Shown piece after piece: positions 5,545-40,392 of a DNA stretch of 64,000 nucleotides. The notes beneath the pieces were generated by a model that was not told the origin of the DNA, made no database searches, and saw only the letters and a program-made list of their open reading frames with translations. The translations under genes and the position numbers were made by a program. The stretch's first letter is position 1. Every line of letters starts with the position of its first letter. The stretch is from positions 7,063-71,062 of the forward strand of contig DATBMA010000062.1 of the NCBI GenBank assembly GCA_036555105.1, read 5' to 3'. Source of the DNA: Acidimicrobiia bacterium. GTDB taxonomy: Bacteria; Actinomycetota; Acidimicrobiia; Spongiisociales; ZC4RG35.

Positions 5545-8508
5545 GTGAGTGAGGAGCGGAGGATCGGGCCGGCCGAATGGCCCGAGGCGATAGAGGCGAC
5601 CGACGGCCCCCAGCTGGTGGTGGCCGGCCCCGGCACGGGCAAGACCGAGTTTCTGGTGCAACGGGCGGTGCACTTGATCCGGTCCGGCCGGGCAAGGTCT
5701 GACCAGATCCTGGTGCTGTCCTTCTCCCGGCGGGCGGCGACCGACCTACGCAACCGGATCGGGGCTGGGGTCGAGGGCTCGTGGACTGGGATCGCCGCGT
5801 CGACCTTCCACTCCTTCGCCTTCAGGCTGCTCGAGGCCCATTCGGAAAGGGCGCTGGGGTGGCCTTCGATGCCGTCGCTCCTGACTGGGCCTGAACAGGT
5901 CGCTCTGGTTCATCATCTCCTTCGCGAGGAGGACAGTGAGGACTGGCCATCTGACCTCGGCGCCTTTCTGGGAACCCAGACGCTGGCGGTGGAGCTGAGC
6001 GACCTGATCATGAGGACTCGCGAGCTGTTGCTCGATGGGACAGCGTTGGCGGCGATGGGAGTGCCTGAATGGCAGGCCATCCCCTCCTTCCTCCAAGCGT
6101 ACGACCGCAGGCTCGAGGCCGAGGGCAGGATCGACTACGGGACCTTGCTGCTGAGAGCCGCGCAATGCCTCGAGTCGGGGGTGGCCGCCGAGGCCGAAGA
6201 GCAGTACCCCTACGTGTTGGTCGACGAGTTCCAGGACACCACCGTCGTCCAGGCCCGGATGCTCGACCTCCTCACCGCCAGTCGCCGCAACCTCACAGTG
6301 GCAGCCGATCCCTATCAGTCCATCTACGGCTTCCGGGGGGCCGCGATCGACAACGTGATCTCGTTCGTGGAACGCTTCGGTGGAGGCCGTGAGCCTCGTC
6401 GGTGGGTGCTGGCGGAAAGCTTTCGGGTCCCGGCCCCGATCCTGGAGTCGGCCCTGCGGGTGGTGGCGGGTGGGGCCCTTCCTGGCGGGGCCGGCGTGGT
6501 ACTCCCGGCCGGGCATGGCGGCCAGGTTGGGGCATATGTGTTCGACCAGGCGACTGCCGAAGCGGAGTGGATCGCAACCGAGGTCGAGCGGATGCACCTC
6601 GAGGAGGCCGTGCCCTATTCGGCGATGGCGGTCCTGGTCCGCTCCAAGCGCCACCTGCTGCCAGAGCTGTCGAGGGCGCTTGACCGGCGCAACATCCCCC
6701 ATGACCCTCCCGACTCGAGGCTGGCCGACCACCCGGCGGTGCGGATGGTCCTCGACCTCGTCACCGCCGCCACCGACACTGATCCGGAGGAAGTCGACCG
6801 GGCGGTGCGCAGGCTCCTGCTGGGACCGCTCTTCGCCCTCTCGCTCAGCCAGGAGCGCGAGATCTGGCGCATGCGGCGCCGCACCGACAGAGACTGGCCG
6901 CAGCTGCTGAGAGAGACGCTGCCGGAGGGCTCCGCTCTGGCCGGCTTGATCGAAGACCCGGCCTGGGCCGGCCAGGAGGCTGCCGCCGACGGGTTCTGGA
7001 AGGTCTGGTCGCGACTGCCTCAGTTCGGTCGCGTGGTGCACGAGCCCGGGTTCGAGGAGCATCGGGCAGCCCTGGCCTCGCTCGCCCAGTCGCTCACCCA
7101 GCAGAGCGAGCGCGATCCCCGAGTGACGCTGAGGGACTATGGCCGAATGGCGGCCGAGGAGGACTTCGAGGCCACCCCGCTCCTCTCGTTTCGCGCACAC
7201 CAGCCCCACTTGACCCTCACCACGCTCCACCAGGCCAAGGGTCTCGAGTTCGACACCGTCTTCATCGCCGACGCCATCGAAGGCCTGTTCCCCGACAACC
7301 GCCGCACCCAGGCTCTGATCAGGCTCGAACTCCTCACGAGACGCGATGACGACCCCGAGGGCAGGCGGGCGCGCCTCCAGGAGGAGATGCGCCTGGCCTA
7401 CACAGCCATGACCCGGGCAAGGCGCCGGGTGGTCTGGTCGGCGACCTCCGCCGGTCTGGACGAAACCGAAAACCGCCCCTCACGCTTCCTGTTGGCGGCA
7501 GCCGGTGTTTCCCAAGTGGATGAGCTCGTCAGTCCCCCGGCCGAGGCGACCAAGCCGCTGACGGCGGCAGCCGCACAAGCATTCCTACGCCGCACGCTGA
7601 CGGACGCCGCCGCACCGGCTCCTGCTCGAGTAGCCGCGCTGGCAGCCCTGTCCCACCCGCCGGCGGGAGACTGGTGGGAGCCACGACGTTTCCCCGGCGT
7701 AGCCGAGCGCGGCCCCGATCACGGGGTCATCTCGTTGCCCATCGTCCTTTCCCCGAGCCAGGCCGACTCCTACGAGTCCTGCCCGCGCCGCTACGTGCTG
7801 GAGAAGCGCCTGGGCCTGCAAGGAGGCGACAGCCCGTATGCCCAATTCGGCCGGCTGATCCACACAGTCCTCGAGCGAGCCGAGAGTGCTGCCAGGGTGA
7901 GCGGGCTCCCCCACGCCCAGTTGGAGACCGCCCTTGCCAAGCTGGCCGAGGTGTGGGCGAAGGAGGCCGACTTCGGAAGCCCCGTCCTCACCGAGGCATG
8001 GGAGATGCGCGGCGCCAAGTTGCTCACCATCCTCTATGAGGCGTGGCCGCCTCCGGAGGGCACCGAGTTGCTCGCCGTCGAGAAGAGCCTCGAGTGGACG
8101 CTTGACGAGATCAAGTGGTGGGGGCGGGCCGATCGGATCGAGCGGCTCCCCACCGGTGGGCTGCGGGTCATCGACTACAAAACGACCACCAGTCCCCCCA
8201 CCACCGGGGAGGCAGCCGAGTCCCTCCAGCTCGGCTTCTATCTCTGCGCAGTCGCAGACGATCCCGAGATGGCGGCCTGGGGCGAGCCGGAGGCAGCCCA
8301 GATGTGGTTCCCGCTCGGCGGCAAGAGGCCGGCGGTGCGCGACTTCGAGGTCGCCAAGCTCGAGGGGGTGGGCCATCGCCTCCTCGAGGTCGAACGGGGG
8401 ATCAAGGCAGAGGAGTGGCCGGCCCGGCCCTCCAAGGATTGCGGCCGCTGCTCGGTCAAGCTCGTCTGCCCGGCATGGCCCGAGGGAAGAGAGGCCTACC
8501 TCCCATGA
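5545..8508 (+). CDS. adnA: AdnA-like subunit of an ATP-dependent helicase-nuclease: an N-terminal UvrD/PcrA-type SF1 helicase and a C-terminal RecB-type nuclease with Fe-S cysteines.
   Basis: It has the Walker A motif GPGTGKTEF, UvrD-family helicase motifs (DEFQDT), the C-terminal nuclease motif RVIDYKTT and a Cys cluster KDCGRCSVKLVCP. Its stop TGA overlaps the start of the next gene (ATGA at 8505-8508). Confidence 0.75.
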   Translation: MSEERRIGPAEWPEAIEATDGPQLVVAGPGTGKTEFLVQRAVHLIRSGRARSDQILVLSFSRRAATDLRNRIGAGVEGSWTGIAASTFHSFAFRLLEAHSERALGWPSMPSLLTGPEQVALVHHLLREEDSEDWPSDLGAFLGTQTLAVELSDLIMRTRELLLDGTALAAMGVPEWQAIPSFLQAYDRRLEAEGRIDYGTLLLRAAQCLESGVAAEAEEQYPYVLVDEFQDTTVVQARMLDLLTASRRNLTVAADPYQSIYGFRGAAIDNVISFVERFGGGREPRRWVLAESFRVPAPILESALRVVAGGALPGGAGVVLPAGHGGQVGAYVFDQATAEAEWIATEVERMHLEEAVPYSAMAVLVRSKRHLLPELSRALDRRNIPHDPPDSRLADHPAVRMVLDLVTAATDTDPEEVDRAVRRLLLGPLFALSLSQEREIWRMRRRTDRDWPQLLRETLPEGSALAGLIEDPAWAGQEAAADGFWKVWSRLPQFGRVVHEPGFEEHRAALASLAQSLTQQSERDPRVTLRDYGRMAAEEDFEATPLLSFRAHQPHLTLTTLHQAKGLEFDTVFIADAIEGLFPDNRRTQALIRLELLTRRDDDPEGRRARLQEEMRLAYTAMTRARRRVVWSATSAGLDETENRPSRFLLAAAGVSQVDELVSPPAEATKPLTAAAAQAFLRRTLTDAAAPAPARVAALAALSHPPAGDWWEPRRFPGVAERGPDHGVISLPIVLSPSQADSYESCPRRYVLEKRLGLQGGDSPYAQFGRLIHTVLERAESAARVSGLPHAQLETALAKLAEVWAKEADFGSPVLTEAWEMRGAKLLTILYEAWPPPEGTELLAVEKSLEWTLDEIKWWGRADRIERLPTGGLRVIDYKTTTSPPTTGEAAESLQLGFYLCAVADDPEMAAWGEPEAAQMWFPLGGKRPAVRDFEVAKLEGVGHRLLEVERGIKAEEWPARPSKDCGRCSVKLVCPAWPEGREAYLP

Positions 8509-11500
8509 CCTTCGAACCGACGCCCGAGCAGCAGGCGGTCATCGACGCCCCCACCGGTCCGCTGCGGGTGTCGGCCGGCGCGGGAACCGGCAAGACCACC
8601 ACCATCGCCCTGCGGGTGGCATCAATGGTGACCAATGGCGGAGTCGCCCCCGAGGAGGTCCTCGGGGTCACGTTCACCAACAAGGCGGCCGGCGAGCTGT
8701 CCGACCGGATCCGATTCCATCTCGCCTCCCGTGTCGAGGCCGGACAGGAGGTCGAGGTCCGCACCTATCACGGCTTCGCCGCCCAGATCGTCCGGGAGTT
8801 CGGCGTGCTGATCGGGATCGAACGGGGCACCAAGGTCATCAGCCCCACCTACAGCCGCCAGCTGCTGCTGGAAGTGATGCGGCGCCATCGCCTGCCCGGC
8901 GTCGACCAGACCTACTTCCAGGTCGTGGGGAGGATGCTCCGACTGTCGTCCAGCCTCGGCGACCACCTCCTGACCGCCAGAGAGGTGGCGGCCCCTGAGG
9001 GAGCCGGCGGGGCCTGGGTGGAGCGGGCGGGGCTGTTGGAAGGCCTTCGCCACTACGAGTTGGAGAAGAGGCGGCTGGGGGTGGCCGACTACGGCGATCT
9101 GATCACCGGCGCCCACCGGGTCTTGATCGAGCGGCCGGAGACGGCCGCCCGCATCTCCGCCCGGTACCGGGTCGTCCTGCTCGACGAGTATCAGGACACC
9201 AACCCGGCCCAGCGAAAGATGCTCCAGGCGCTCTTTCCATCCGGGCACTCGGTGACCGCGGTCGGGGACACGGACCAGACCATCTATGAATGGAGGGGAG
9301 CCTCCCTCGACAACTTCAGGAGCTTCCCCCTTCACTTTCCGTCGGCCTCAGGCCATCCGGCGCCGACCCTTCCCCTCACCTTCAACCGGCGGTCCGGTAC
9401 CAGGATCATCGAAGTGGCGAACGCCATCCGCGACCAGATCGGGTCGGACTCGGCCCCGCTGCAGCCCAAGCCCGACGCCCCCGAAGGCGGGGTGGAGACC
9501 GCTTGGTGGCGAACCTCGGTCGACGAGGCCGAATGGATAGCCACCCGGCTGGAGGAGTTGCACGAATCGATGCGCTGGCGCGACGCGGCGGTCCTGTTCC
9601 GCAAGAACAAGGACATCCCGTTGATCCTGGAGACTCTTGGCCGCCACGAGATCCCGGTCGAGGTCGCCAATCTGGGTGGGCTGCTCTCGGTTCCCGAGGT
9701 GACCGACCTCCACTGCTGGCTGCGGATCCTGGCGGATCCCGAGGACGGTCCCGCCTTGGCCAGGGTGATGCTTGGGTCCGGCTACCGGCTGGGCCTGGCC
9801 GACCTGGCCGCACTGGCCAGGTGGGTTCGAAGCCTGCGGCCCAGGCGACCCGAGCGTGATGACGAGGCGGGGCCCTCGCCGATCGAAGCCGTCGACCGAC
9901 TCGAAGACGTGGCCGGCCTCCGACCGGAGGCGGCACCGGTCCTCCAGTCGTTCCGCGCCACCTACAGAGCGCTGTTGGTGGCCGCCCAGGGATCATCCCT
10001 GGTGGAGTTGTGCCGGACGGTGCTCGAGGCCACCCGCGCCTGGTCCCACGTCGATGCCTTGCCCAGCGCATCGAGGCTTAGTGCCCGGCTCAACCTCTAC
10101 AGATTCCTCGATCTGGCAGAGGACTGGTCGCCGTTGGAGGGGCGCCCCTCGTTGGATGCATTCCTGCTCTTCCTCGCCGACTCGGCGGACGCCGAGGCCG
10201 ACGAGCTCGATCCGGCGCGGCTGTCTGGCGCCGATGCAGTCACCCTGGTGACGGTCCACCGAGCCAAGGGCTTGGAGTGGGAAGCCGTCTTCCTGCCCGC
10301 CGTCCACAAGGACAACTTCCCTTCCCGGCAGATCAACTCGGACAATCCGCGCAAGAACGCCCAGTCCCTGCCCTATGAGCTGCGCCTCGACGCCGGCGAC
10401 CTGCCTGGCCCGGAGATGACCGACGCCAAGTTCGAGGCCGCGGTCCGCGAGCGTCACCTCCAGCAGGAGTGGCGAGTGGCGTACGTCGCCGCCACCAGGG
10501 CCAAGAGCCTCCTGGCGGTGAGCGGCGCCTTTTGGGGGGGCAGCCCCGAGCCGAACACCAACCCGCGGGAGCCCAGCCCGCTGTTCGAGCTCGTCGACAG
10601 CCATCCGATGTCAAGGCAAGTGAACTTCGAACCCGATCCGGGCGAGCAGCCCGAGCTGCTCGGACTCGAGCCGACGGCCCCCTCCCCTGATCCCACCTTC
10701 GCCAGCGGTTGGGAGGAGGCCATGCGACGCGCCATCGCCGACCCCGCCTACCCGGCCCAGCTGGCTGACGAGCTGAAGGTGTCCGACGCGTTCGAGCGCA
10801 GATTGGCCGACGAGGAGGCGACCCTGTTCGACCTACCCCAACTCCCGGGCGAGGAGGCCTCCGCTACTCCCATCGTCTCGGTGACCGGGCTGGTCACCTA
10901 TGCATCCTGTCCCCTCCGGTACAGGTGGTCGGAGGTCGACCGACTGCCCCAGCGACGCTCACCGGCGGCCAGGCGCGGGTCCGAGGTGCACCGGCGCATC
11001 GAGCTCCACAACCTGGGAGTGGTCCCGCTCGACGATCTCGCCTTCGACACATATGACGCCACTTCCGACGTCACCACCGCCGCAGGACAGGACGAACGAC
11101 CTCACGACCCCATGGTCTCTTTCCTCGGCTCGCGCTTCTCGACCGACAGGCCCCTGCTGACAGAGGCCCCGTTCGAGTTGCGACTCAATTCGGGCACCAA
11201 GGTGCGCGGGCGGATCGATGCCGTGTACGAGAGCTCGGAGGGAATCTGGGAGGTGGTCGACTTCAAGACCGGCCCGCCGAGCGCCGACCCGGCCACCCGC
11301 GTGCAGCTGCAGGCATACGCGGTGGCGGTCGAGGACGTCCCGTTTCGCAGCAATCCGCCCGATGATGTGACCGTCACCTTCGCCCACCTAGGCAAGGAGG
11401 CAATCGAGCTGAGCGAGCACGTCGATGAAGCCTGGCTGCAGGAGGCGCGAGAACATCTGGATCAGCTGACGGCCGGGATCGAGGCGCAGGCCTACCCGGC

Positions 11501-11573
11501 CACCCCGGGTCCCGGCTGCGCGAGCTGTGACTTCTTCGGCTTCTGCGCCGCCGGCCAGGCCTATCTCAGCTGA
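8505..11573 (+). CDS. adnB: AdnB-like subunit of an ATP-dependent helicase-nuclease (UvrD-like helicase fused to a RecB nuclease with Fe-S cysteines).
   Basis: The start was set at ATG 8505 (reading MTFEPTPEQQAVIDAP), in frame with the track ORF 8115-11573, whose upstream extension is Arg/Gly-rich. It has the Walker A motif GAGTGKTTT and DEYQDT, the C-terminal nuclease motif EVVDFKTG and the cysteines PGCASCDFFGFC. Confidence 0.75.
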   Translation: MTFEPTPEQQAVIDAPTGPLRVSAGAGTGKTTTIALRVASMVTNGGVAPEEVLGVTFTNKAAGELSDRIRFHLASRVEAGQEVEVRTYHGFAAQIVREFGVLIGIERGTKVISPTYSRQLLLEVMRRHRLPGVDQTYFQVVGRMLRLSSSLGDHLLTAREVAAPEGAGGAWVERAGLLEGLRHYELEKRRLGVADYGDLITGAHRVLIERPETAARISARYRVVLLDEYQDTNPAQRKMLQALFPSGHSVTAVGDTDQTIYEWRGASLDNFRSFPLHFPSASGHPAPTLPLTFNRRSGTRIIEVANAIRDQIGSDSAPLQPKPDAPEGGVETAWWRTSVDEAEWIATRLEELHESMRWRDAAVLFRKNKDIPLILETLGRHEIPVEVANLGGLLSVPEVTDLHCWLRILADPEDGPALARVMLGSGYRLGLADLAALARWVRSLRPRRPERDDEAGPSPIEAVDRLEDVAGLRPEAAPVLQSFRATYRALLVAAQGSSLVELCRTVLEATRAWSHVDALPSASRLSARLNLYRFLDLAEDWSPLEGRPSLDAFLLFLADSADAEADELDPARLSGADAVTLVTVHRAKGLEWEAVFLPAVHKDNFPSRQINSDNPRKNAQSLPYELRLDAGDLPGPEMTDAKFEAAVRERHLQQEWRVAYVAATRAKSLLAVSGAFWGGSPEPNTNPREPSPLFELVDSHPMSRQVNFEPDPGEQPELLGLEPTAPSPDPTFASGWEEAMRRAIADPAYPAQLADELKVSDAFERRLADEEATLFDLPQLPGEEASATPIVSVTGLVTYASCPLRYRWSEVDRLPQRRSPAARRGSEVHRRIELHNLGVVPLDDLAFDTYDATSDVTTAAGQDERPHDPMVSFLGSRFSTDRPLLTEAPFELRLNSGTKVRGRIDAVYESSEGIWEVVDFKTGPPSADPATRVQLQAYAVAVEDVPFRSNPPDDVTVTFAHLGKEAIELSEHVDEAWLQEAREHLDQLTAGIEAQAYPATPGPGCASCDFFGFCAAGQAYLS

Positions 11574-12058: not shown

Positions 12059-14347
12059 GTGGCTCAGGCCGAAGGGGCAGCCTCGACTCCGCTGTGGCCG
12101 TCCGAGTCCGACGGCTCGGCGACGGCCGTCGTGCTGATCGATGCCTCGAGCCGGCTCGAGGAGAACCTCCTCCGGCAGTGGGTTGAGCTTCGGCGCCCCC
12201 CCGGTCAACAGGTCGATGTCTTCGACGTCACCTCCAGCCGCCGAAGGCGGCGGGCGGTGAGAACCTCGCCGGCTGTGGTCGAGCGCCTCGAGAGGGGTGA
12301 CGACCCGCTCGTGTTCGCCATCCGACTTGCGTGGTCCCCATCCGAGCGCGACGGGACGCGTTCTGCCAGGTGGACCGACCTGCTGAAGCTGGGCGATCCC
12401 CGCGACCCGGGGTTCATCCGCCAGCGGGTAATCGCCGGGCGACGACCCGATCGGATGGCGATCGTCGTCGGCGAAGCCGTTCTTGCCTCCCGCGCCCTCG
12501 CCGACCACGGCTCGCACCGCGAGAACATCGACCCGGTCGAGTTCATCACCTTGCGGGCCTGGCGGAGCCTGGAGCGGGCCGAGCGGGCCCTGCGCGGCAA
12601 CCGGTACAAGGTCCCCAAGTTCGTGCATGAGGAGCTGACTGCCCGCAGCGAGTTCCGAGGTGGAGCAGAGGAATCTGGCAGCGCGATGGGACTGGATCCC
12701 GAGCAGTCCATGCGGAAGGCCGGGGCCTATCTGGATGAGATGGCCGCTTCCCACAGCACCTTCCTGATCGACCTCATCGCCAACGCCATTCATGCCCTTT
12801 ACCGCCAGGGCTACAACGAGATCCGGTACGACCCGGCCGACCTCGCCGAGGTGGCCGCCCTAGGTCAAGAGCATCCGGTGGTGTTCCTTCCTTCCCATCG
12901 CTCCAATCTGGACCGGCTGGCTCTCCAGTATCTGCTCTGGGAGAACGATCTCCCACCCAACCACACCGCCGGCGGGATCAACATGGACTTCTTTCCGGTG
13001 GGCCCGCTGGTGAGGAGAACAGGTGTCTTCTTCATCCGACGCTCGTTCAAGGACAATCCCTTGTACAAGTTCGTTTTGCAGTCCTACCTCGACTACCTGC
13101 TCCAGAAGCGCTTCACCCTCGAGTGGTACCTGGAGGGAGGTCGCTCTCGCAGCGGGAAGCTCCTGCCTCCGCGGTTCGGGTTGCTCGCCTACGTCGTGGA
13201 CAGCTGGCGCCGGGGCAAGGCCGAGGATGTGATGCTGGTCCCGGTATCCATCTCCTACGACCAGATCCAGGATCTCTCCGCCTACACCGACGAGGCCAAG
13301 GGGCAAGCGAAGGAGAAGGAAACCCTGGGGTGGGTGATCCGCGGGGTCTCCTCCTTGCGGCGACGCTACGGGGACATCCACGTCGCCTTCGCGGATCCCC
13401 TGTCGCTGGTCAAGGAGCTGGGACCTGCCCCCGACAGCCCAGATGACCTCGACATCGCCAAGCTGGGACTCGAGGTCATGTACCGCATCTCACGGGTCAC
13501 ACCCATCACGCCCGCTTCGGTGGTGGTGACCGCGGTCCTCGAGGCCGATGGCGCCCCCGCCTCGATCGAGGAGATCGGCAGACGTGCTCATGCCATGCAA
13601 CAGCTGATCGAGCAACACCGACTTCCGACGACCGACCGGCTGGGTTTCGCCGACCTCGCCGAGGTGAGGAGGGTGCTGACCCTGCTCGCCTCACACGGCA
13701 ATGTCACCCTCGCCTCCGATGGCTCCCTCCCCTCCCAGCTGACCGACGATCAGGTACTCCGGGCGTCGTACTACCGGAACGCAATCGTCCATCACTTCCT
13801 GTCTCGGGCCATCAGCGAGATGGCCCTGGCAGGAACCAGCCCTCTGGTCCCGGAGGAGTTCTGGGAGGAAGTGGGGCGGTTGCGCGACCTTCTGAAGTTC
13901 GAATTCTTCTTCCCCGAGAAGGAAGAATTCAAGATGGGGATCGAGCGCGACCTGGATACCGCATGCCCTGGCTGGCTCGACGCCCTGGCTGAACCTGCCC
14001 TGATCCTCGAACGTCTGCAGCCCCCGGTGGCGGGGTGGGCGATCGCTCCTTTTCTCGAGGCCTATCAGATCGCGGCCGACGTCTTGCTCGAATGGGAAGG
14101 AGAGCTGGAGGACAAACAGTTCCTCGCCGCCTGTCAGCGGCGAGGGGTGTCGTATCGGGGGGAACGCCGCGTCACCGCCGCCAGCGTCTCCCAGCCGCTC
14201 TTCGAGCAGGCGCTGGGCCTCGCCCGACACCGGAGCCTGCTCGAGGCCGGATTCAAAGAGAGAGAGCAGTTCGCCGCCGAGGTGGGGGACGCCTTGGGGA
14301 GAGCGAGGTCGAGGGTCAGCCGCGCCCAACCAGCTGCAGCTGGCTGA
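12059..14347 (+). CDS. plsB: Glycerol-3-phosphate acyltransferase (PlsB-like).
   Basis: It is 762 aa long, has a GTG start and carries the acyltransferase HX4D motif (LPSHRSNLDRL). Confidence 0.7.
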   Translation: MAQAEGAASTPLWPSESDGSATAVVLIDASSRLEENLLRQWVELRRPPGQQVDVFDVTSSRRRRRAVRTSPAVVERLERGDDPLVFAIRLAWSPSERDGTRSARWTDLLKLGDPRDPGFIRQRVIAGRRPDRMAIVVGEAVLASRALADHGSHRENIDPVEFITLRAWRSLERAERALRGNRYKVPKFVHEELTARSEFRGGAEESGSAMGLDPEQSMRKAGAYLDEMAASHSTFLIDLIANAIHALYRQGYNEIRYDPADLAEVAALGQEHPVVFLPSHRSNLDRLALQYLLWENDLPPNHTAGGINMDFFPVGPLVRRTGVFFIRRSFKDNPLYKFVLQSYLDYLLQKRFTLEWYLEGGRSRSGKLLPPRFGLLAYVVDSWRRGKAEDVMLVPVSISYDQIQDLSAYTDEAKGQAKEKETLGWVIRGVSSLRRRYGDIHVAFADPLSLVKELGPAPDSPDDLDIAKLGLEVMYRISRVTPITPASVVVTAVLEADGAPASIEEIGRRAHAMQQLIEQHRLPTTDRLGFADLAEVRRVLTLLASHGNVTLASDGSLPSQLTDDQVLRASYYRNAIVHHFLSRAISEMALAGTSPLVPEEFWEEVGRLRDLLKFEFFFPEKEEFKMGIERDLDTACPGWLDALAEPALILERLQPPVAGWAIAPFLEAYQIAADVLLEWEGELEDKQFLAACQRRGVSYRGERRVTAASVSQPLFEQALGLARHRSLLEAGFKEREQFAAEVGDALGRARSRVSRAQPAAAG

Positions 14348-15680
14348 TCGTCGGCTCGGCGCAGCAGAACCAAGGCTCGGTCAGGTGCGGCCCGGCAGGT
14401 CCGGCCTCCAGCACCGGCGGCGACGGGCGAAGGGCGGCCGCTGCCGCCTGCGACCACATCTCAGCGAGGGTGTCGGCGGGTGGGTGTCCGCCTGCACCCT
14501 CCTCAGCGAGGCGCGCCGCCTCAGCCTGCAGCGCGTCGACCATCGGGTCGGCAGCGGACCAGGTGTGAGTCAGGGAACGGTGGTCGTACGGCCCGAGGTG
14601 CGGTTGCATTTCGGGCAAGCCCAGCAACAGTGATCCGTCCGGGACCAGCAGCCTGATGCTGAGCTGGACGGGGTCGGTGGCGCCGAACAGCCGGTGTCTT
14701 TGGAGGAACTCGAAGATGTCGGCGACGTCGGCCGGAGTAGTCCATGGCGTGTATGGCAGCCACGAAGGTCGCACCTCCGCTCCGGCACAGCGCACCAGAT
14801 CGACCACCTCGCTCATGTCGCTCGCCGTGTGCCCCTTGTCGAGGAGACCGAGGATGCGGCCATTGGTTGACTCGAAGGCGGATACGACGAAGACGAGCCC
14901 CTTGTCGACCATTCCGGGAAGGACATCGCGATGGGCCAGCAGGTGCTCGACCTTGGCGGTGATGTCGAAGGTGAGGCCGGGGAAGGAGGCGTGGAGCTCG
15001 TCGACCACGTGCTGGGAGTGAGCGGGCCCGTTGAGGAAGTCGGGATCGCCGAAAGTGACGTGGCGCGCCCCCATCGCCACGAGCTGGGAGATGTCGGCCA
15101 ACAACGACTCGCGGTCGACGATTCGGAATCGGCCGTCGTATACGGACGGCACCGGACAGTGCCTGCATCGATGCCGGCATCCGCGGGAGGCCTCGACATA
15201 GGCGGCCACTCGCTCCTCCCCGTCGATCGAGAGGCGGGCATAACCGTCGAGGGGCGGAAGGAGATTGCGGGCAGGGACCACCGATTCGTGCAAACCGATT
15301 TCGACGGTGAGCCCGGAACCGGTTCCGGCCGGCCAGGCGGCCAGGTCGTCGACGTATTCCCCGGCGATGAGGCGGTCGGCGAGCCCCGCCAGGGTGCGAT
15401 CTGCCCCGACCGCGGCATAGAGGCCGTAGAAGGCGATGGGCAGGTCGGGCCGGGATAGGCGGAGACCGACGGCCACCTCCACCCCCAAGCGCATTGCCGT
15501 GTGCATCGGGACCGAGATCGCCGCCGCCTCGGCCCATCCGGCCAGATCGGAGGGCAAGGGCTCCACGGCCAGGTCGCAGCATCGAACTTCATGCCCCTCC
15601 ATCAGCAGACGGGCCGCCGGCGCCGCCACGTGCAGCGGCTGGTGGCCGAGCTCGTAGGTGGAGATGAGGGCTATACGCAT
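14316..15680 (-). CDS. B12-binding-domain radical SAM protein with a C-terminal CCAEP tail (CUAEP/CCAEP-tail family).
   Basis: The N-terminal MRIALISTYELGHQP resembles a B12-binding-domain start. It has the radical SAM motif CRHRCRHC (C-x3-C-x2-C), and the extreme C-terminus reads EPWFCCAEPTISQLQLVGRG. Confidence 0.7.
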   Translation of the reverse strand: MRIALISTYELGHQPLHVAAPAARLLMEGHEVRCCDLAVEPLPSDLAGWAEAAAISVPMHTAMRLGVEVAVGLRLSRPDLPIAFYGLYAAVGADRTLAGLADRLIAGEYVDDLAAWPAGTGSGLTVEIGLHESVVPARNLLPPLDGYARLSIDGEERVAAYVEASRGCRHRCRHCPVPSVYDGRFRIVDRESLLADISQLVAMGARHVTFGDPDFLNGPAHSQHVVDELHASFPGLTFDITAKVEHLLAHRDVLPGMVDKGLVFVVSAFESTNGRILGLLDKGHTASDMSEVVDLVRCAGAEVRPSWLPYTPWTTPADVADIFEFLQRHRLFGATDPVQLSIRLLVPDGSLLLGLPEMQPHLGPYDHRSLTHTWSAADPMVDALQAEAARLAEEGAGGHPPADTLAEMWSQAAAAALRPSPPVLEAGPAGPHLTEPWFCCAEPTISQLQLVGRG

Positions 15681-15688
15681 CTGGTGAG

Positions 15689-16618
15689 ATGGTACGGGCG
15701 CCGCGGTACTGTGAGCAGGTGCCTGGAACCTTCTGGCCCCTCAGCACCGGGCCGGTATACGTCGAGGACGAGGGCCAAGGGATCCCGATCGTCTGTGTGC
15801 ACGGGCTGGGCGGGTCCCACCTCAACTGGCGCCCGGCGGCCAAGGCCCTTGGCCAGATCGGGAGGGTGATTGCCCTCGACCTGCCAGGATTCGGGTACTC
15901 CCCTCCTGGCCGGCGCTCAACCATCGGCGCGTACGTCGACACCGTCACAGAGCTCATAGCCGGCCTCGGGCGCCCGGCCCTGCTGATCGGCAACTCGATG
16001 GGCGGAGTGGTGGCCCTGGAGACCGCCTACCGCTCACCGCAGCTCATCGAAGGCCTGGTCTTGATCAATCCCGCCCTTCCCTTGGCGCCGGGAGCCAGGG
16101 ACATCGACCGGGAGACCGCCCCCCGGCTCCTGATCCAGTCGATCCCGGTGGTCGGCACCAGGATGGTGGCCCGGTACCTCGAAGGGACCACCCCGGAGGT
16201 CCAGGTGTGGGACGCCCTGGGAGTGGTCTGCGCCAATCGGGATCGGGTCCCCATGACCGTGCTCACCGAGGGCACCAGGTTCGCCGCGATGCGGAGGCGC
16301 CAGCCGTGGACGGCAGCCACCCATGCTCGGTCGGCCAGGTCAACGGCGCTCAGGCTGTTCAGGCGCAGGCACATGCTCGACCAGCTGGCGGCCGTGCAGC
16401 CGCCGACGCTGGTGATCTTCGGCGCCAAGGATCGCATCATCCCTCCCTCGTCTCACCGGCGGGTGCGAGAGCTCCGCCCTGACTGGACCGTGCTCGAAAT
16501 CAAGGACTGCGGCCACTGTCCTCAGATCGAAGACCCGGAAATGACCGCGGATCTGATCCGAACGTGGTGGGACGAGAGCGGAGCGAAGGTGCCAGAGGGG
16601 AATGCAGCGGCCGGCTGA
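15689..16618 (+). CDS. Alpha/beta-fold hydrolase.
   Basis: It has HGLGGSHLNW and a GNSMGG nucleophile elbow (GxSxG). It is 309 aa long. An in-frame GTG at 15719 is an alternative start. Confidence 0.75.
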   Translation: MVRAPRYCEQVPGTFWPLSTGPVYVEDEGQGIPIVCVHGLGGSHLNWRPAAKALGQIGRVIALDLPGFGYSPPGRRSTIGAYVDTVTELIAGLGRPALLIGNSMGGVVALETAYRSPQLIEGLVLINPALPLAPGARDIDRETAPRLLIQSIPVVGTRMVARYLEGTTPEVQVWDALGVVCANRDRVPMTVLTEGTRFAAMRRRQPWTAATHARSARSTALRLFRRRHMLDQLAAVQPPTLVIFGAKDRIIPPSSHRRVRELRPDWTVLEIKDCGHCPQIEDPEMTADLIRTWWDESGAKVPEGNAAAG

Positions 16619-16630
16619 TAGGCTCGGCGA

Positions 16631-19354
16631 ATGACGGACCCCGGCGAATCGCGCCGGACCCTTCCCGACGAGTTCGTACACCAGCTCACCGACAACGACC
16701 CGGTCGAGACGCAGGAATGGATCGACTCGCTCGATCAGGTGGTGTCGGCCCACGGGCCGGTGCGGGCGCGCTACCTGCTTGCCAAGCTGCTCGAACGCGC
16801 TCACCAGACCAACCTCGGCATCCCACCCACCATCACCACGCCTTATGTGAACTCGATCCCGCCGGAGGAGGAGCCCGAGTACCCGGGTGACACCGACCTC
16901 GAGCAACAGATCCGGCGCTACATCCGCTGGAACGCGGCAGTGATGGTGGTCAAGGCCAACCACGCCGAGAAGGGCATCGGCGGCCACCTCTCCACCTTTG
17001 CCTCATCCGCCACTTTGTACGAGGTGGGCTTCAACCACTTCTTCCGCGGCAAGGCCGACGGCAGCCCGGGCGACCACGTCTATTTCCAGGGCCACGCCGT
17101 GCCAGGCGTATATGCCCGCGCATTCCTGGAGCGGCGGCTCGATGAAGGACAGCTGGACAACTTCCGATTTGAGATCGGCGGCAACGGGCTGTCGTCATAC
17201 CCCCACCCACGGCTGATGCCCGACTTCTGGGAGTTCCCAACCGTCTCCATGGGCCTGGGCCCGATCAACTCCATCTACCACGCCCGCTTCAACCGCTATC
17301 TCCACAATCGCGGAATCGACGACACCTCCGACTCCAAGGTCTGGTGCTTCCTCGGCGACGGCGAGACCGACGAGCCGGAGACGTTGGGAGCGATCGGACT
17401 GGCAGCCAGGGAGCGGCTCGACAACCTCATATGGGTGGTCAACTGCAATCTCCAGCGCCTTGACGGGCCGGTGCGGGGCAACGGGAAGATCATCCAGGAG
17501 CTCGAGGCCGTGTTCCGAGGGGCCGGGTGGAACGTCATCAAGGTGATCTGGGGATCTGGCTGGGATCCGCTGCTCGCCGCCGACAAGGACGGCGCCCTCG
17601 TCCAGGTGATGACCGACACCGTCGACGGCGAGTACCAGCGATACAAGGCGGAGGATGGGGCCTTCGTCCGCGAGCGCTTCTTCGGCAAGGACCCCCGCAC
17701 CCTGGCCTTGGTGGAGAAATGGACCGACGACGAGATCTGGGCACTGCGACGCGGCGGGCTGGACTTCCGCAAGGTGTACTCGGCTTATCGCCTGGCCAGT
17801 GAGATGACCGAGGCGCCGACGGTCGTGCTGGCCAAGACCATCAAGGGCTGGACGCTCGGCCCTGACGTGGAAGGGCGCAACGCCACCCATCAAATCAAGG
17901 AGCTCACCAACCAGCAGCTGATGCAGCTGCGAACCCGGCTCCACCTCGAGAACGAGATCCCGGCCGAGGCGCTCGAAGGGGACCGCGAGCCACCCTACTT
18001 CCGGCCGCCGGAGGACTCCCCCGAGTTCCAGTACCTGCAGGAGAGGCGCAAGATCCTCAACGGCAGCGTGCCCACCAGGGTGGTCCGCACCCGGCGGCCG
18101 ATGACCCTGCCGGGGCCGGAGCCGTTCGCCGACATCTACGCGGGAAGCGACAAGGTGGACGCCTCCACCACTACGGCCTTCACACGCCTCGTGCGCAACC
18201 TGTCGAGAGTGGAGGGATTCGGGGACCGGGTGGTTCCAATCGTCCCTGACGAGGCCCGCACCTTCGGCATGGACTCATTGTTCAAGGAGCTGAAGATCTA
18301 CGCCTCGCAAGGCCAGCTGTACGAGCCGGTCGACGCCAAGATGGTCCTCTCCTACAGCGAGTCGCGCGACGGCCAGATCCTCGAAGAAGGGATAACCGAG
18401 GCCGGCTCCACCGCCAGCTGGATTGCCGCCGCCACCTCCTACGCGGTGCGGGGCGTCCCAATGGTCCCGTTCTTCATCTTCTATTCGATGTTCGGCTTCC
18501 AGCGGGTCGGGGACCTGCTGTGGGGCGCGGGCGACGCCAGAGCCCGCGGCTTTCTCCTCGGCGCCACCGCCGGCAGGACCACCCTCCAGGGTGAGGGGCT
18601 CCAGCACCAGGACGGCCACAGCCTGATCCTCTCCTCCACCAATCCAGCCTGTGAGTCATACGACCCCGCCTTCGCATACGAGGTGGGGGTGGTCGTCGAG
18701 CGGGGGCTGCAGCGCATGTACGGGGCAGAACCCGAGGACGTCTTCTTCTACGTCACTCTCTACAACGAGAACTTCCGACAGCCGCCCAAGCCCGACGGTG
18801 TCGACCAGGGTGTGGTCGACGGCCTCTACCGCTTCGCTGCCGCCCCGGAGGGCACGAACCTGGGCGCTGCCCTTCTGTTCTCCGGCTCGGCCAACCTGGC
18901 CGCGAGGGAGGCGGCCGCGGTGCTGGCCAACGAGTACGGGGTGGGCGTGGAGTTGTGGTCGGCAACCTCCTATCAACGCCTGCGCCGCGAGGCGATGGAG
19001 GCAGAGCGATGGAATCGCCTCCACCCAGGGCTGCCCCCGCGGGTGCCGATGGTGACCAGGCTGCTCTCCCACGTTCAAGGCCCGGTCGTCGCGGTGACTG
19101 ACTTCATGCACATGGTCCCCGACCAGGTCGGCCGCTGGGTCCCCGGCGGGCTGGCCACCCTGGGCACGGACGGCTACGGCAGGTCCGACAGTCGCGCCCG
19201 GCTGCGCCGATTCTTCGAGGTCGACGCCCCCCATGTCACGGTGGCGGTGTTGGCCTCCCTGGCGGCCGCCGGGAGCCTCGAGCCTGCGGTCGTCCACGAT
19301 GCCATCACCCGTTACGGAATCGACCCCGAGACGGCGCCTCCCTGGCTGCGCTGA
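16631..19354 (+). CDS. aceE: Pyruvate dehydrogenase E1 component, homodimeric type.
   Basis: It is 907 aa long. It has an AceE-like N-terminus (DNDPVETQEWIDSLD), and the TPP-binding and transketolase-like regions are conserved throughout. Confidence 0.9.
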   Translation: MTDPGESRRTLPDEFVHQLTDNDPVETQEWIDSLDQVVSAHGPVRARYLLAKLLERAHQTNLGIPPTITTPYVNSIPPEEEPEYPGDTDLEQQIRRYIRWNAAVMVVKANHAEKGIGGHLSTFASSATLYEVGFNHFFRGKADGSPGDHVYFQGHAVPGVYARAFLERRLDEGQLDNFRFEIGGNGLSSYPHPRLMPDFWEFPTVSMGLGPINSIYHARFNRYLHNRGIDDTSDSKVWCFLGDGETDEPETLGAIGLAARERLDNLIWVVNCNLQRLDGPVRGNGKIIQELEAVFRGAGWNVIKVIWGSGWDPLLAADKDGALVQVMTDTVDGEYQRYKAEDGAFVRERFFGKDPRTLALVEKWTDDEIWALRRGGLDFRKVYSAYRLASEMTEAPTVVLAKTIKGWTLGPDVEGRNATHQIKELTNQQLMQLRTRLHLENEIPAEALEGDREPPYFRPPEDSPEFQYLQERRKILNGSVPTRVVRTRRPMTLPGPEPFADIYAGSDKVDASTTTAFTRLVRNLSRVEGFGDRVVPIVPDEARTFGMDSLFKELKIYASQGQLYEPVDAKMVLSYSESRDGQILEEGITEAGSTASWIAAATSYAVRGVPMVPFFIFYSMFGFQRVGDLLWGAGDARARGFLLGATAGRTTLQGEGLQHQDGHSLILSSTNPACESYDPAFAYEVGVVVERGLQRMYGAEPEDVFFYVTLYNENFRQPPKPDGVDQGVVDGLYRFAAAPEGTNLGAALLFSGSANLAAREAAAVLANEYGVGVELWSATSYQRLRREAMEAERWNRLHPGLPPRVPMVTRLLSHVQGPVVAVTDFMHMVPDQVGRWVPGGLATLGTDGYGRSDSRARLRRFFEVDAPHVTVAVLASLAAAGSLEPAVVHDAITRYGIDPETAPPWLR

Positions 19355-39730: not shown

Positions 39731-40333
39731 CTATTTCTTCGAGCGTTGGTAGTAGGGATTGCTCCCTGCTCCATGGTCCGTCACGTCGACGACCTCGGTC
39801 AGCTCCGGTATCGCCTCGCGCAGAATGCGATCGATCCCCTGGCTCAGCGTCACCTGGGCGAGGCCGCATCCCTGGCAGCCGCCGCTCAGGCGCAAGTAGG
39901 CCACGGTGCCATCCACCGAGACCAGCTCGGCTGCCCCGCCATGCATCGCAATCGAAGGGTTGACGCTCTCTGTCAGCACCCTGGCAACCTGGTCGGCCAG
40001 CGGGCCCTCGAGGTCGCCTGGCACTGCCGCCATCGCCGGGCTCGGGCTGTTGGGGTTGTTCATTGACAGACCCTCGTCGGTCAATCCGAGCGAGGCCCCC
40101 TGGAGGTTGGAGACGTCGCGCTCGAACACGATGACCGCGAGGTCGTCGTGGCGCTCGAGTACCTGGTCGTCCTGCAGGTCGGCGACCGGGATGAAGGCGA
40201 GATCGTAAGAGAACTGCCCTCCCCGCACTCCGGTGATCTCGAGTAGGAGTCCTACCTCCCCCTCCGTCCCTTCCTGGTCCCGGAGGCTGCGGATCATCTG
40301 CAGGGCATCCGCTTCGACTGTGAGGATGGCCAT
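39731..40333 (-). CDS. nfuA: Fe-S cluster biogenesis protein NfuA-like (an IscA/HesB-like N-domain plus a NifU C-domain).
   Basis: It has a C-terminal GGCQGCGLA (CxxC NifU motif) and is 200 aa long. Confidence 0.65.
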   Translation of the reverse strand: MAILTVEADALQMIRSLRDQEGTEGEVGLLLEITGVRGGQFSYDLAFIPVADLQDDQVLERHDDLAVIVFERDVSNLQGASLGLTDEGLSMNNPNSPSPAMAAVPGDLEGPLADQVARVLTESVNPSIAMHGGAAELVSVDGTVAYLRLSGGCQGCGLAQVTLSQGIDRILREAIPELTEVVDVTDHGAGSNPYYQRSKK

Positions 40334-40392
40334 GAGACTTCAATGGTACCGGACCGACCCCCCTAGACCCCCCTCGTCATTAGCGTTGCCTG

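Follow-up and report, generated by a model that had tools for sequence, protein, structure and literature searches.

A CCAEP-tail radical SAM gene of an Acidimicrobiia genome: a Cys-type member of a widespread family related by sequence to ArsL

The presence of a radical SAM gene that ends in a Cys-Cys tail, between a plsB-like gene and a hydrolase gene, raises the question of which family it belongs to, which genes it works with, and what chemistry it might perform. We analysed it within a single stretch of DNA of 64,000 nucleotides (hereafter, the window) from an Acidimicrobiia bacterium (GenBank assembly GCA_036555105.1).

A Cys-type member of a catalogued radical SAM family

The gene and its two motifs are placed as follows.

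14316..15680, minus strand: CCAEP-tail radical SAM enzyme of 454 aa, a Cys-type NF040546 member (open reading frame with an ATG start)
15156..15179, minus strand: CRHRCRHC, the CxxxCxxC radical SAM [4Fe-4S] ligand motif, aa 168-175 (read from the sequence)
14352..14372, minus strand: WFCCAEP tail motif, aa 437-443 (read from the sequence)

Both motifs had been pointed out in an earlier note on this DNA, which assigned the protein to the CUAEP/CCAEP-tail family. A profile search agrees with this assignment: NF040546 scores 509.7 bits against the protein, above its curated cutoff of 500, and the alignment runs end to end (residues 3-449 on profile positions 1-467 of 468). The gene is a genuine Cys-type member of this catalogued family. 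Nothing defining sets it apart from NF040546, and its closest homologues are Acidimicrobiia proteins that bear this name at NCBI. It adds one member to an already known, uncharacterised family, and the family itself is not new. Its function is still uncharacterised in the literature (Haft preprint 10.1101/2022.07.06.499078); our literature searches gave no functional study of the CUAEP/CCAEP-tail family NF040546 and no mention of the ligase partnership described below.

In the protein, a Rossmann-like N-domain precedes a radical SAM barrel, which has a single CxxxCxxC [4Fe-4S] site; a C-terminal domain and then a conserved tail complete it. PF04055 (Radical_SAM) is the sole Pfam domain found at E<=0.01 (36.7 bits). 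The cluster ligands C168, C172, and C175 are invariant in our alignment (A1), as are the tail residues C439, C440, E442, P443, T444, and Q447; invariant Cys are limited to positions 168, 172, 175, 439, and 440, and the N-domain has none. The tail reads WFCCAEPTISQLQLVGRG, with two Cys only, and its CCAEP is followed by 11 residues (TISQLQLVGRG) rather than the "about 13" first counted. The family consensus is LTExWFC-[C/U]-[A/S]-EPTxxQ, and C-[C/U]-[A/S]-E-P is retained among orthologues, wherever a related locus includes the tail. Because the tail is conserved in all these loci and the curated family threshold is passed, the motifs are not the product of chance.

The family is normally encoded with a ligase and an NfuA-like protein

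Four other genes of the window bear on the question of partners.

12059..14347, plus strand: PlsB-like glycerol-3-phosphate acyltransferase (Pfam Acyltransferase and GPAT_C; NF002886 at 642.8 bits, below the 721 cutoff)
15689..16618, plus strand: alpha/beta-fold hydrolase, divergent neighbour (Pfam Abhydrolase_1/6)
39731..40333, minus strand: NfuA-like Fe-S cluster carrier (Pfam NifU; NCBIfam NfuA at 89 bits, below cutoff)
40393..41631, plus strand: ATP-grasp L-amino-acid ligase of the LAL type (Pfam ATP-grasp_4, LAL_C2, and ATPgrasp_N)

The radical SAM gene had been described as an orphan without obvious partner genes. This is correct for the immediate flanks, but the same window holds ligase and NfuA-like partners at 39731..41631. 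The plsB-like, hydrolase, and dtd genes were rejected as functional partners: of the 82 related loci, only 11-12 have each of them near the radical SAM gene, and all of these belong to one Acidimicrobiia block. The plsB-like gene lies within 8 kb in 11 loci, every one of which shows the Acidimicrobiia type of synteny, and the hydrolase gene is also near in 11. Since these adjacencies are confined to a single synteny block, they represent lineage synteny. The hydrolase reading frame of the window starts 8 bp from the radical SAM start codon. In the window's Acidimicrobiia clade the gene adjoins aceE, the hydrolase gene, and plsB, and the neighbours of the family are housekeeping genes such as aceE, lipA, plsB, and pfk.

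The comparison of neighbourhoods in relatives, suggested in the earlier note, revealed a recurrent ATP-grasp L-amino-acid ligase and an NfuA-like gene. Across 83 loci (82 relatives and the window), the ligase gene is immediately upstream of the radical SAM gene and on the same strand in 47, and this adjacency spans Acidimicrobiales, Thermoleophilia/Solirubrobacterales, and Chloroflexota. The two reading frames often overlap or abut. The NfuA-like gene is found in 46 of the 83 loci and is nearly always divergent from the ligase gene. The module of the family is thus normally made of a divergent NfuA-like gene, the ligase gene, and the radical SAM gene. Most NF040546 members are accompanied by both partners, whereas the radical SAM gene of the window is separated from them: in its Acidimicrobiia clade the module is split, and the NfuA-like and ligase genes, still paired, lie about 25 kb away in the same window. 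The ligases adjacent to the radical SAM genes of relatives match the window at one place only, 40393..41631 (50-54% identity), and the pair has the divergent arrangement seen in loci L094 and L095. The NfuA-like protein has a degenerate A-type N-domain and an Nfu domain with a CQGC motif. The best named NCBIfam resemblances of the ligase include BacD and DdaF, all far below cutoff. At the scale of the window the gain is modest: the radical SAM protein is identified, the plsB-like and hydrolase genes beside it are no functional partners, and the real ones are at 39.7-41.6 kb.

Two other genes recur near the radical SAM gene, one encoding a SaoD/DsrE-family protein (NF040913, 198 bits; 17 loci) and one a DUF169 protein (18 loci); both are Cys-rich carriers. 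An aminotransferase was rejected as a conserved partner: it occurs beside the Thermomicrobium roseum gene and beside the ligase of locus L087, and the window reading frame at 41606..42691 is similar to neither. A link to ABC transporters was also rejected. In some Acidimicrobiia the radical SAM gene is followed by ABC genes (clusters 11 and 24), and those of the window, at 35.6-38 kb, are only paralogous (32% identity).

ArsL is the closest characterised relative

The only other strong profile match of the protein is the ArsL profile NF040542, which gives 245.3 bits (E 1e-72, residues 4-395), below its cutoff of 450; the next family reaches 36 bits. Judged by sequence, ArsL is the closest characterised relative of the CCAEP enzyme by a wide margin, and the CUAEP/CCAEP-tail family is its close sister, far more widespread. 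Both have a C-terminal tail rich in Cys and a partner ligase of the ATP-grasp type. This kinship turns a family that could not be annotated into one with a concrete hypothesis on methylthioadenosine (MTA) versus 5'-deoxyadenosine (5'-dA), on the ligand of the tail, and on the substrates of the ligase.

[quoted passage not shown] It produces MTA and an ACP radical and binds As(III) by its tail, whose deletion abolishes C-As bond formation and leaves SAM cleavage intact (bioRxiv 10.1101/2024.02.01.577332; 10.64898/2026.04.29.721666). In vitro, the reaction could be reconstituted with enzyme, SAM, arsenite, and a reductant, and the product is released as a free amino acid (10.1101/2024.02.01.577332). 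In the literature, ArsL is described as the sole canonical-fold radical SAM enzyme known to convert SAM to an aminocarboxypropyl radical, and its authors predict that further such enzymes are hidden within the superfamily.

The likeness extends over most of the protein. Proteins with the RCCLKC tail are 28-32% identical to ours over 76-84% of the length, with motifs shared throughout, and the three-part architecture, the length, and the place of the cluster motif are all the same. In both families a Cys-Cys dipeptide stands on a C-terminal tail, after the same C-terminal helix, and ATP-grasp ligase genes are found in the loci of both. The ArsL loci of Klebsiella, Pantoea, and B. cereus encode ligases of the same type as the CCAEP loci, with ATP-grasp_4 and, in B. 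cereus, also LAL_C2. Because these ligases are only 24-26% identical to that of the window, the partnership common to the two families could be convergent.

There are also clear differences. The CCAEP family has two tail Cys where ArsL has three (WFCCAEPT versus RCCLKC, as in the ArsL tail …FKRCCLKC*), about 40 extra linker residues before the tail, and family-specific His (H60, H174, and H284). It lacks the arsR, arsM, aquaporin, or CobW context: neither in the window nor in the related loci with annotation was arsR, arsM, or a permease gene found near the radical SAM gene, whereas ArsL loci carry such genes. The family is also far larger and of different taxonomy. The one-genome-per-species GTDB collection yields 582 or more matches to it, of which the 80 examined are mostly from Actinomycetota and Chloroflexota, whereas NF040542 was reported with 147 sequences (10.1101/2024.02.01.577332).

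The resemblance to B12-binding proteins is one of fold

A search of the PDB by sequence gave no close relative (best match 9ccb, E 3e-9, core only). The AF2 model of the protein has a pLDDT of 89.3 (about 75-78 in the tail), and its best structural match is AprD4 (PDB 6FD2; TM 0.71, Foldseek E 4e-17), a radical SAM diol dehydratase. The two have the same order of domains, but they are 16% identical in sequence, the NCBIfam model of AprD4 gives 19 bits, and AprD4 has no Cys-Cys tail. AprD4 has a B12-like domain and is not known to bind cobalamin. The next matches are the B12-dependent OxsB, MgmA, and TsrM, and TokK and CysS are also similar, so that the predicted fold appears to match B12-dependent enzymes and the B12-free AprD4 alike.

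The cobalamin-binding-like N-domain announced by the earlier note is therefore upheld at the level of the fold and not at that of PF02310, which has no match in the protein at E<=0.01; the "B12-binding" label expresses a resemblance of fold and is not evidence of cobalamin. The protein could nevertheless depend on cobalamin, as a class B radical SAM methyltransferase or a related enzyme, in line with its structural resemblance to OxsB, TsrM, TokK, CysS, and MgmA and with the precomputed PF02310 matches of many homologues. We regard this as very improbable, given the lack of a PF02310 match in the protein itself, the cobalamin-free domain of AprD4, the reconstitution of ArsL from enzyme, SAM, arsenite, and reductant, and the scores of all class B families, which are at most 37 bits. 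A methylthiotransferase of the MiaB/RimO type was rejected: the N-domain lacks the three conserved Cys that bind an auxiliary [4Fe-4S] cluster in these enzymes, and the MTTase models give at most 25 bits.

The second tail position switches between Cys and Sec

The second Cys of the tail was said to be selenocysteine in some lineages, and this is what the related loci show. The codon is TGA in 22 of the 80 nonredundant related loci with the tail in view, and never TAA or TAG. A census of all 86 loci, including 4 redundant copies of L001/L004, gives TGC 51 times, TGT 7 times, and TGA 27 times. The TGA is followed by a 7-bp SECIS-like hairpin at +16..+34, counted from the U of UGA. In the TGA loci 95% of the cells of this hairpin are paired and 4 of the 7 pairs show compensatory changes, with a covariation of 0.514 versus 0.188 in shuffles (none of 500 shuffles reaches 0.514). 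The same columns in most Cys-type genes pair at 1-3 of 7 positions. The gene of the window belongs to the latter type: its tail codons are TGC TGC (14361..14366), the second at the Sec position of the relatives, and with 1 of 7 pairs it has no SECIS hairpin. A cultured host of the Sec type is Thermomicrobium roseum DSM 5159. The switch between Sec and Cys took place at least 6 times on a neighbour-joining tree, and its repetition at one tail position therefore marks this residue as chemically active.

A mobile C-terminal Cys-Sec pair is also characteristic of redox shuttles, thioredoxin reductase among them. Both MerA (…CCAG) and thioredoxin reductase (…GCUG) have a vicinal dichalcogen pair near a flexible C-terminus, with interchange of Cys and Sec, but they are flavoprotein disulfide reductases of unrelated fold and the likeness is one of analogy only. 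CU motifs have also been tied to heavy-metal handling (Haft preprint 10.1101/2022.07.06.499078). The enzyme might use a 5'-deoxyadenosyl radical to abstract hydrogen from a small molecule or peptide, in which case the Cys-Cys/Cys-Sec tail would be a mobile redox shuttle or H-atom donor, resolving the product radical or re-reducing the active site in the manner of the C-terminal Cys pairs of class I ribonucleotide reductase, thioredoxin reductase, and MerA, and not the site of the substrate. The canonical CxxxCxxC motif and PF04055 barrel are consistent with this, as are the two chalcogens only of the tail, the repeated replacement of Cys by Sec (typical of redox-active sites), the lack of metalloid-handling genes nearby, and the best structural match, since AprD4 is a canonical 5'-dA enzyme. 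However, ArsL, by far the nearest characterised relative, makes no 5'-dA and binds its substrate by the tail, and the conserved ligase partner, common to the ArsL loci, fits an amino-acid product. We consider this 5'-dA mechanism with a redox tail somewhat unlikely.

An ArsL-like mechanism is tentatively proposed

The kinship with ArsL suggests, as a plausible reading still short of probable, that the CCAEP enzyme works like ArsL and transfers an ACP group onto a heteroatom held by the tail, and that the ligase extends the amino acid so formed. The reduced cluster would cleave the C-gamma-S bond of SAM into MTA and a 3-amino-3-carboxypropyl radical or an Fe-C intermediate, and the ACP group would be joined to a soft heteroatom (S, Se, metalloid, or metal) on the vicinal Cys-Cys/Cys-Sec of the mobile tail. 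The product, a gamma-substituted 2-aminobutyrate, would then be joined by the ATP-grasp ligase to another amino acid, while the NfuA-like protein would load or repair the radical SAM cluster. The class of the ligase, which acts on free amino acids, fits an amino-acid product. Against the ArsL-like mechanism, the tail offers two chalcogen ligands where ArsL has three Cys for As(III), and no ars, mer, or other metalloid genes were found alongside the CCAEP family. An S or Se acceptor would lead to homocysteine or selenohomocysteine, which is metabolically odd, SAM being consumed.

The tail could also be the substrate. ACP or another SAM-derived group would then be put on the enzyme's own C-terminal Cys/Sec, e.g., in a radical substitution reaction of a disulfide or selenenylsulfide that leaves a cystathionine-like residue, and the ligase would elaborate the appended amino acid, the protein being a carrier or a single-turnover scaffold. 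This would account for the strict conservation well past the Cys pair (LTExWFC[CU][AS]EPTxxQ) and agrees with the moderate confidence of the tail in the AF2 model and with the overlapping or abutting ligase and radical SAM genes. Yet it is improbable: it has no precedent in the clade, in which ArsL releases a free amino acid, free amino acids are the normal substrates of LAL_C2-type ligases, and the unlinked radical SAM and ligase genes of the window's clade are less expected for an obligate protein-protein pair.

Taken at its broadest, the ArsL-like mechanism would make the CUAEP/CCAEP enzymes a second, much larger canonical-fold clade that generates an ACP radical and uses it to bond carbon to an atom of S, Se, or a metal(loid) presented on the tail. 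With the ligase, they would make a novel heteroatom amino acid or dipeptide, and this product would be common among the Actinomycetota (Acidimicrobiia, Thermoleophilia) and Chloroflexota of soils and sediments. This extended proposal is quite doubtful.

The 3' end of the gene

Two features lie at or beyond the 3' end of the radical SAM gene.

14316..14347, no strand: 32-nt convergent overlap between the 3' ends of the radical SAM and plsB-like genes (from ORF coordinates)
14122..14145, minus strand: terminator-like hairpin with a 10-bp stem and a T-rich tail (consensus scan only)

The overlap was correctly recognised in the earlier note, but its length, both stop codons included, is 32 nt and not 31. 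It contains a 14-nt palindrome, CCAGCTGCAGCTGG, at 14330..14343. We see nothing special in it: a 77%-identical orthologue has the same overlap of 32 nt on its contig, and the overlap falls outside the profile-aligned parts of both the radical SAM and the PlsB-like protein, which points to ordinary compact packing. In one Sec-type relative there is a 4-nt overlap of stop codons once the TGA is read through. An Rfam scan of the entire window returned zero matches and, therefore, no riboswitch upstream of the radical SAM gene. The hairpin at 14122..14145 lies about 170 nt 3' of the radical SAM stop codon, within the plsB-like coding sequence, and is a possible terminator of the radical SAM gene.

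A Cys-type member of the CUAEP/CCAEP-tail family

The radical SAM gene belongs, as a new and ordinary member of Cys type, to a known, uncharacterised family. ORF analysis and reading of the sequence confirmed, with small corrections, the frame with a radical SAM motif and a CCAEP tail that the earlier note had described at 14316-15680:

14316..15680, minus strand, radical SAM ORF (ATG start, 454 aa)
15156..15179, minus strand, CRHRCRHC motif (residues 168-175)
14352..14372, minus strand, WFCCAEP motif (residues 437-443), with 11 residues after it
14361..14366, minus strand, the two tail Cys codons, TGC TGC

The protein scores 509.7 bits against NF040546, the NCBIfam model of the CUAEP/CCAEP-tail radical SAM (seleno)proteins, above the curated cutoff of 500 bits; its residues 3-449 align to positions 1-467 of 468 in the profile, which bears out the proposed family identity. 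Radical_SAM is the only domain recognised by Pfam. A search of 5.8 billion proteins gave at least 7,994 homologues at E<=1e-10; with clustering at 50%, E<=1e-30 is reached by 362 clusters, and at least 582 loci were confirmed in a collection with one genome per species. The best homologues are Acidimicrobiia metagenome proteins (54-77% identity), several of which carry NCBI's CUAEP/CCAEP-tail name, and the labels of the 80 retrieved loci are chiefly those of Acidimicrobiia, Thermoleophilia/Solirubrobacterales, and Chloroflexota. The CCAEP motif is conserved among orthologues: C439/C440, E442, and P443 are invariant in an alignment of 23 sequences, as are C168/C172/C175, T444, and Q447. The same alignment shows the family-specific motifs STYELGHQP, SVPMHTAMRL, GDPDFLN, KVEH, LDKGH, and DPVQ..IRLL. 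There is a single CxxxCxxC cluster site, and conserved cysteines for an auxiliary cluster are absent.

The AF2 model of the protein is confident (pLDDT 89.3, pTM 0.89; about 75-78 in the tail). Its best structural match is AprD4 (TM 0.71), followed by OxsB, MgmA, TsrM, and MiaB/RimO; no close relative was found among solved structures. Because of these matches, the "B12-binding" label given to the N-domain is to be read as a statement on the fold: the resemblance to AprD4, OxsB, MgmA, and TsrM stands, and the cobalamin-binding domain PF02310 had no Pfam match at E<=0.01. We regard cobalamin-dependent chemistry as very improbable.

Selenocysteine at the second tail cysteine of relatives

Many database homologues terminate exactly at "...TEPWFC", and the DNA of two such relatives (L001 and L004) has a TGA there, followed in frame by AEPT.... 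We read the codon of the second cysteine in 86 fetched loci (80 from the genome scan and L001-L006; 4 of the 86 duplicate L001 or L004, and one ends before the tail). There are 51 loci with TGC, 7 with TGT, and 27 with TGA, and none with TAA or TAG; the selenocysteine (Sec) codon that the earlier note proposed to look for is thus present in orthologues. The gene in the window is a Cys form.

The search for a SECIS element was also positive. The TGA genes share a 7-bp hairpin with a 5-nt loop, AG(G/T)TN, at a constant offset of +16..+34 from the U of the UGA. Among 22 TGA-type genes, all seven pairs form in 18 and six in 3, whereas 59 Cys-type genes mostly pair at 1-3 of 7 positions in these columns (1/7 in the window gene). 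In the hairpin alignment (20 sequences), 95% of the cells are paired, with compensatory changes at 4/7 pairs; the covariation score is 0.514 versus 0.188 when shuffled (0/500 reach 0.514) and at most 0.167 in slid registers. The hairpin is a bacterial element of SECIS type, specific to Sec forms. In a neighbour-joining tree the Sec forms fall into at least six separate groups among the Cys forms. The Cys/Sec tail of the family is conserved and chemically tuned.

Thermomicrobium roseum DSM 5159, a cultured organism, carries a Sec-type member with a truncated annotation. The RefSeq CDS (WP_012643191.1; megaplasmid NC_011961.1, locus L090, 8935..10446) ends at a TGA, after which the frame continues with AEPLEDPSG... 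(in full AEPLEDPSGPVASQVRMVDQPLR, then a stop). A hairpin GGACCC-GUC-GGGUCC lies at +17..+31, an offset matching that of the other TGA genes. The neighbours of this gene are a divergent PLP aminotransferase gene, a convergent MFS transporter gene, and a GNAT gene.

A conserved partnership with an ATP-grasp ligase and an NfuA-like protein

The neighbourhood check in relatives was made by clustering six-frame ORFs from 83 loci (82 nonredundant relatives and the window). It revealed a conserved partnership: an ATP-grasp L-amino-acid ligase (Pfam ATP-grasp_4, LAL_C2, and ATPgrasp_N) is encoded immediately upstream, in the same orientation, in 47/83 loci, its ORF frequently overlapping or abutting that of the radical SAM protein, and an NfuA-like Fe-S carrier is encoded in 46/83, nearly always divergently from the ligase gene. 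Two further neighbours recur less often: a SaoD/DsrE-family protein (NF040913, 198 bits), in 17 loci, and DUF169, in 18.

The earlier note had called the gene an orphan. This holds for its immediate flanks, but both partners are encoded elsewhere in the window:

40393..41631, plus strand, ligase (50-54% identical to the ligases adjacent to the radical SAM gene in relatives, and their sole match in the window)
39731..40333, minus strand, NfuA-like gene, divergent from the ligase gene

The order nfuA-like, ligase, a gene of 360-373 aa, and pfk is common to the window and two other loci (L087 and L088). About 33 kb separate the ligase gene from the radical SAM gene on the Acidimicrobiia chromosome OZ242000.1 (L013, L087), and the lengths of contigs suggest that both genes also lie on three more long ones, of 1,507,123, 2,562,588, and 161,107 bp. 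The window gene belongs, in the neighbour-joining tree, to a clade in which the radical SAM and ligase genes are unlinked; since the ligase and NfuA-like genes are still in the window, the module was split in this lineage, not lost. The third gene of this order is, in the window, a 361-aa ORF (41606..42691, minus strand) with an N-terminal hydrophobic segment, convergent with the ligase gene and overlapping it by 26 nt. It is 64% identical to the gene at the same position in L088, had no Pfam or NCBIfam match, and is a conserved hypothetical protein.

The immediate neighbours of the window gene were rejected as family partners. Genes for a plsB-like protein, the hydrolase, and a uvrD-like protein each occur within 8 kb in 11/82 related loci, and dtd in 12/82, all in one Acidimicrobiia block (aceE, hydrolase, radical SAM gene, sometimes ABC genes, plsB, dtd, uvrD); this is lineage synteny. 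The gene aceE is within 8 kb in 25/82 related loci and in the window (16631..19354), in two unrelated arrangements: divergent in Acidimicrobiia, and on the same strand in Chloroflexota (L037, L044, L056, L061, L062, L071, L082, L086), where the order is nfuA-like (divergent), ligase, radical SAM gene, lipA, aceE. Such proximity may be fortuitous, or it may hint at a connection with lipoate or 2-oxoacid dehydrogenase biology. Kept beside aceE in several related Acidimicrobiia loci is an HD-GYP-type protein, in the window at 19411..21504 (plus strand), with a long region of Thr/Pro-rich repeats (TTTTTQP…) and C-terminal Ig-like (Big_9-type) repeats.

ArsL as the closest characterised relative

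The NF040546 family is sister to ArsL. The RCCLKC-tail ArsL model NF040542 is the only other strong profile match of the protein (245 bits, E 1e-72, residues 4-395), the third-best NCBIfam family scoring 36 bits, and tblastn against plasmids found 36 RCCLKC-tail genes (28-32% identity over 76-84% of the query). The pairwise alignment corresponds motif for motif. ArsL ends in "...AEEGVFKRCCLKC" directly after the helix matching residues ~380-396 of our protein, which, by comparison, has about 40 extra residues ahead of LTEPWFCCAEPT. The protein is not an ArsL: it scores below the ArsL cutoff, has two tail cysteines instead of three, and lacks ars context.

The ligase partnership is paralleled in the ArsL plasmid loci of Klebsiella, Pantoea, and Bacillus cereus (L091 5001..9740, L093 6001..10744, and L092 1139..7275). 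The first two read arsR (divergent), arsL, a small carboxymuconolactone-decarboxylase-like gene, ATP-grasp, MFS, arsM, CobW-type GTPase, and aquaporin; B. cereus has an ATP-grasp gene (ATP-grasp_4 and LAL_C2) 3.3 kb upstream. Compared with the window's ligase, those of the ArsL loci show 24-26% identity (E 1e-8 to 3e-16). We found in the literature no paper describing a ligase partnership of either family, nor one in which arsinothricin-type clusters are given an ATP-grasp step; arsinothricin may therefore have peptide derivatives. The small carboxymuconolactone-decarboxylase-like gene also accompanies the arsL, arsM, MFS, and CobW-GTPase genes in ArsL loci.

ArsL converts SAM to methylthioadenosine and a 3-amino-3-carboxypropyl (ACP) radical, which is coupled to As(III) held on three tail cysteines; deletion of the tail abolishes C-As bond formation and leaves SAM cleavage intact (10.1101/2024.02.01.577332; 10.64898/2026.04.29.721666). 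The enzyme has been reconstituted in vitro with SAM, arsenite, and a reductant (10.1101/2024.02.01.577332). We tentatively propose an ArsL-like chemistry for the family, with ligation of the product. An ACP radical or Fe-C intermediate would be generated from SAM and its ACP group attached to a soft atom that the two vicinal tail residues (Cys-Cys or Cys-Sec) bind; the ligase would join the resulting gamma-substituted 2-aminobutyrate to another amino acid, and the NfuA-like protein would load or repair the cluster. A resistance function is argued against by the housekeeping neighbourhoods without ars or mer genes. The tail might instead be a redox shuttle or hydrogen-atom donor, like those of thioredoxin reductase, ribonucleotide reductase, and MerA, in an enzyme of canonical 5'-dA chemistry; this would fit a Cys/Sec pair while departing from the SAM cleavage of ArsL, and we think it rather unlikely. 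That the tail is itself the modified substrate seems improbable.

The weight of the finding lies in this possibly non-canonical chemistry of the family, the copy in the window having nothing unusual of its own. The explicit sisterhood with ArsL, the conserved nfuA-like/ligase/radical SAM module with its parallel in ArsL loci, and the covariation-supported SECIS element go beyond the searchable literature; together they make the family's function directly testable.

Immediate flanks of the gene

The gene overlaps the end of its convergent neighbour:

12059..14347, plus strand, plsB-like ORF
14316..14347, overlap of the plsB-like and radical SAM ORFs

This overlap had been noted as 31 bp; it exists, measures 32 nt with both stop codons counted, and is unremarkable. 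It contains a perfect 14-nt palindrome, CCAGCTGCAGCTGG (14330..14343). A strong terminator-like hairpin (14122..14145, minus strand; 10-bp stem, T-rich tail) lies within the plsB-like CDS, about 170 nt beyond the radical SAM stop.

On the other side, the alpha/beta hydrolase ORF starts (15689, plus strand) 8 bp from the radical SAM start codon (15680, minus strand), or 38 bp if it begins at the GTG at 15719, as the 301-aa length of its orthologue suggests. The two starts are too close for conventional divergent promoters and leaders, which probably makes both transcripts leaderless; the stretch 13900..16100 showed no sigma-70-like site. Further away, ARAGORN called a 92-nt tRNA-Gly(ACC) at 9755..9846 (plus strand), within a long UvrD/PcrA-like ORF (8115..11573); the coding sequence there is GC-rich, and the call is probably spurious.
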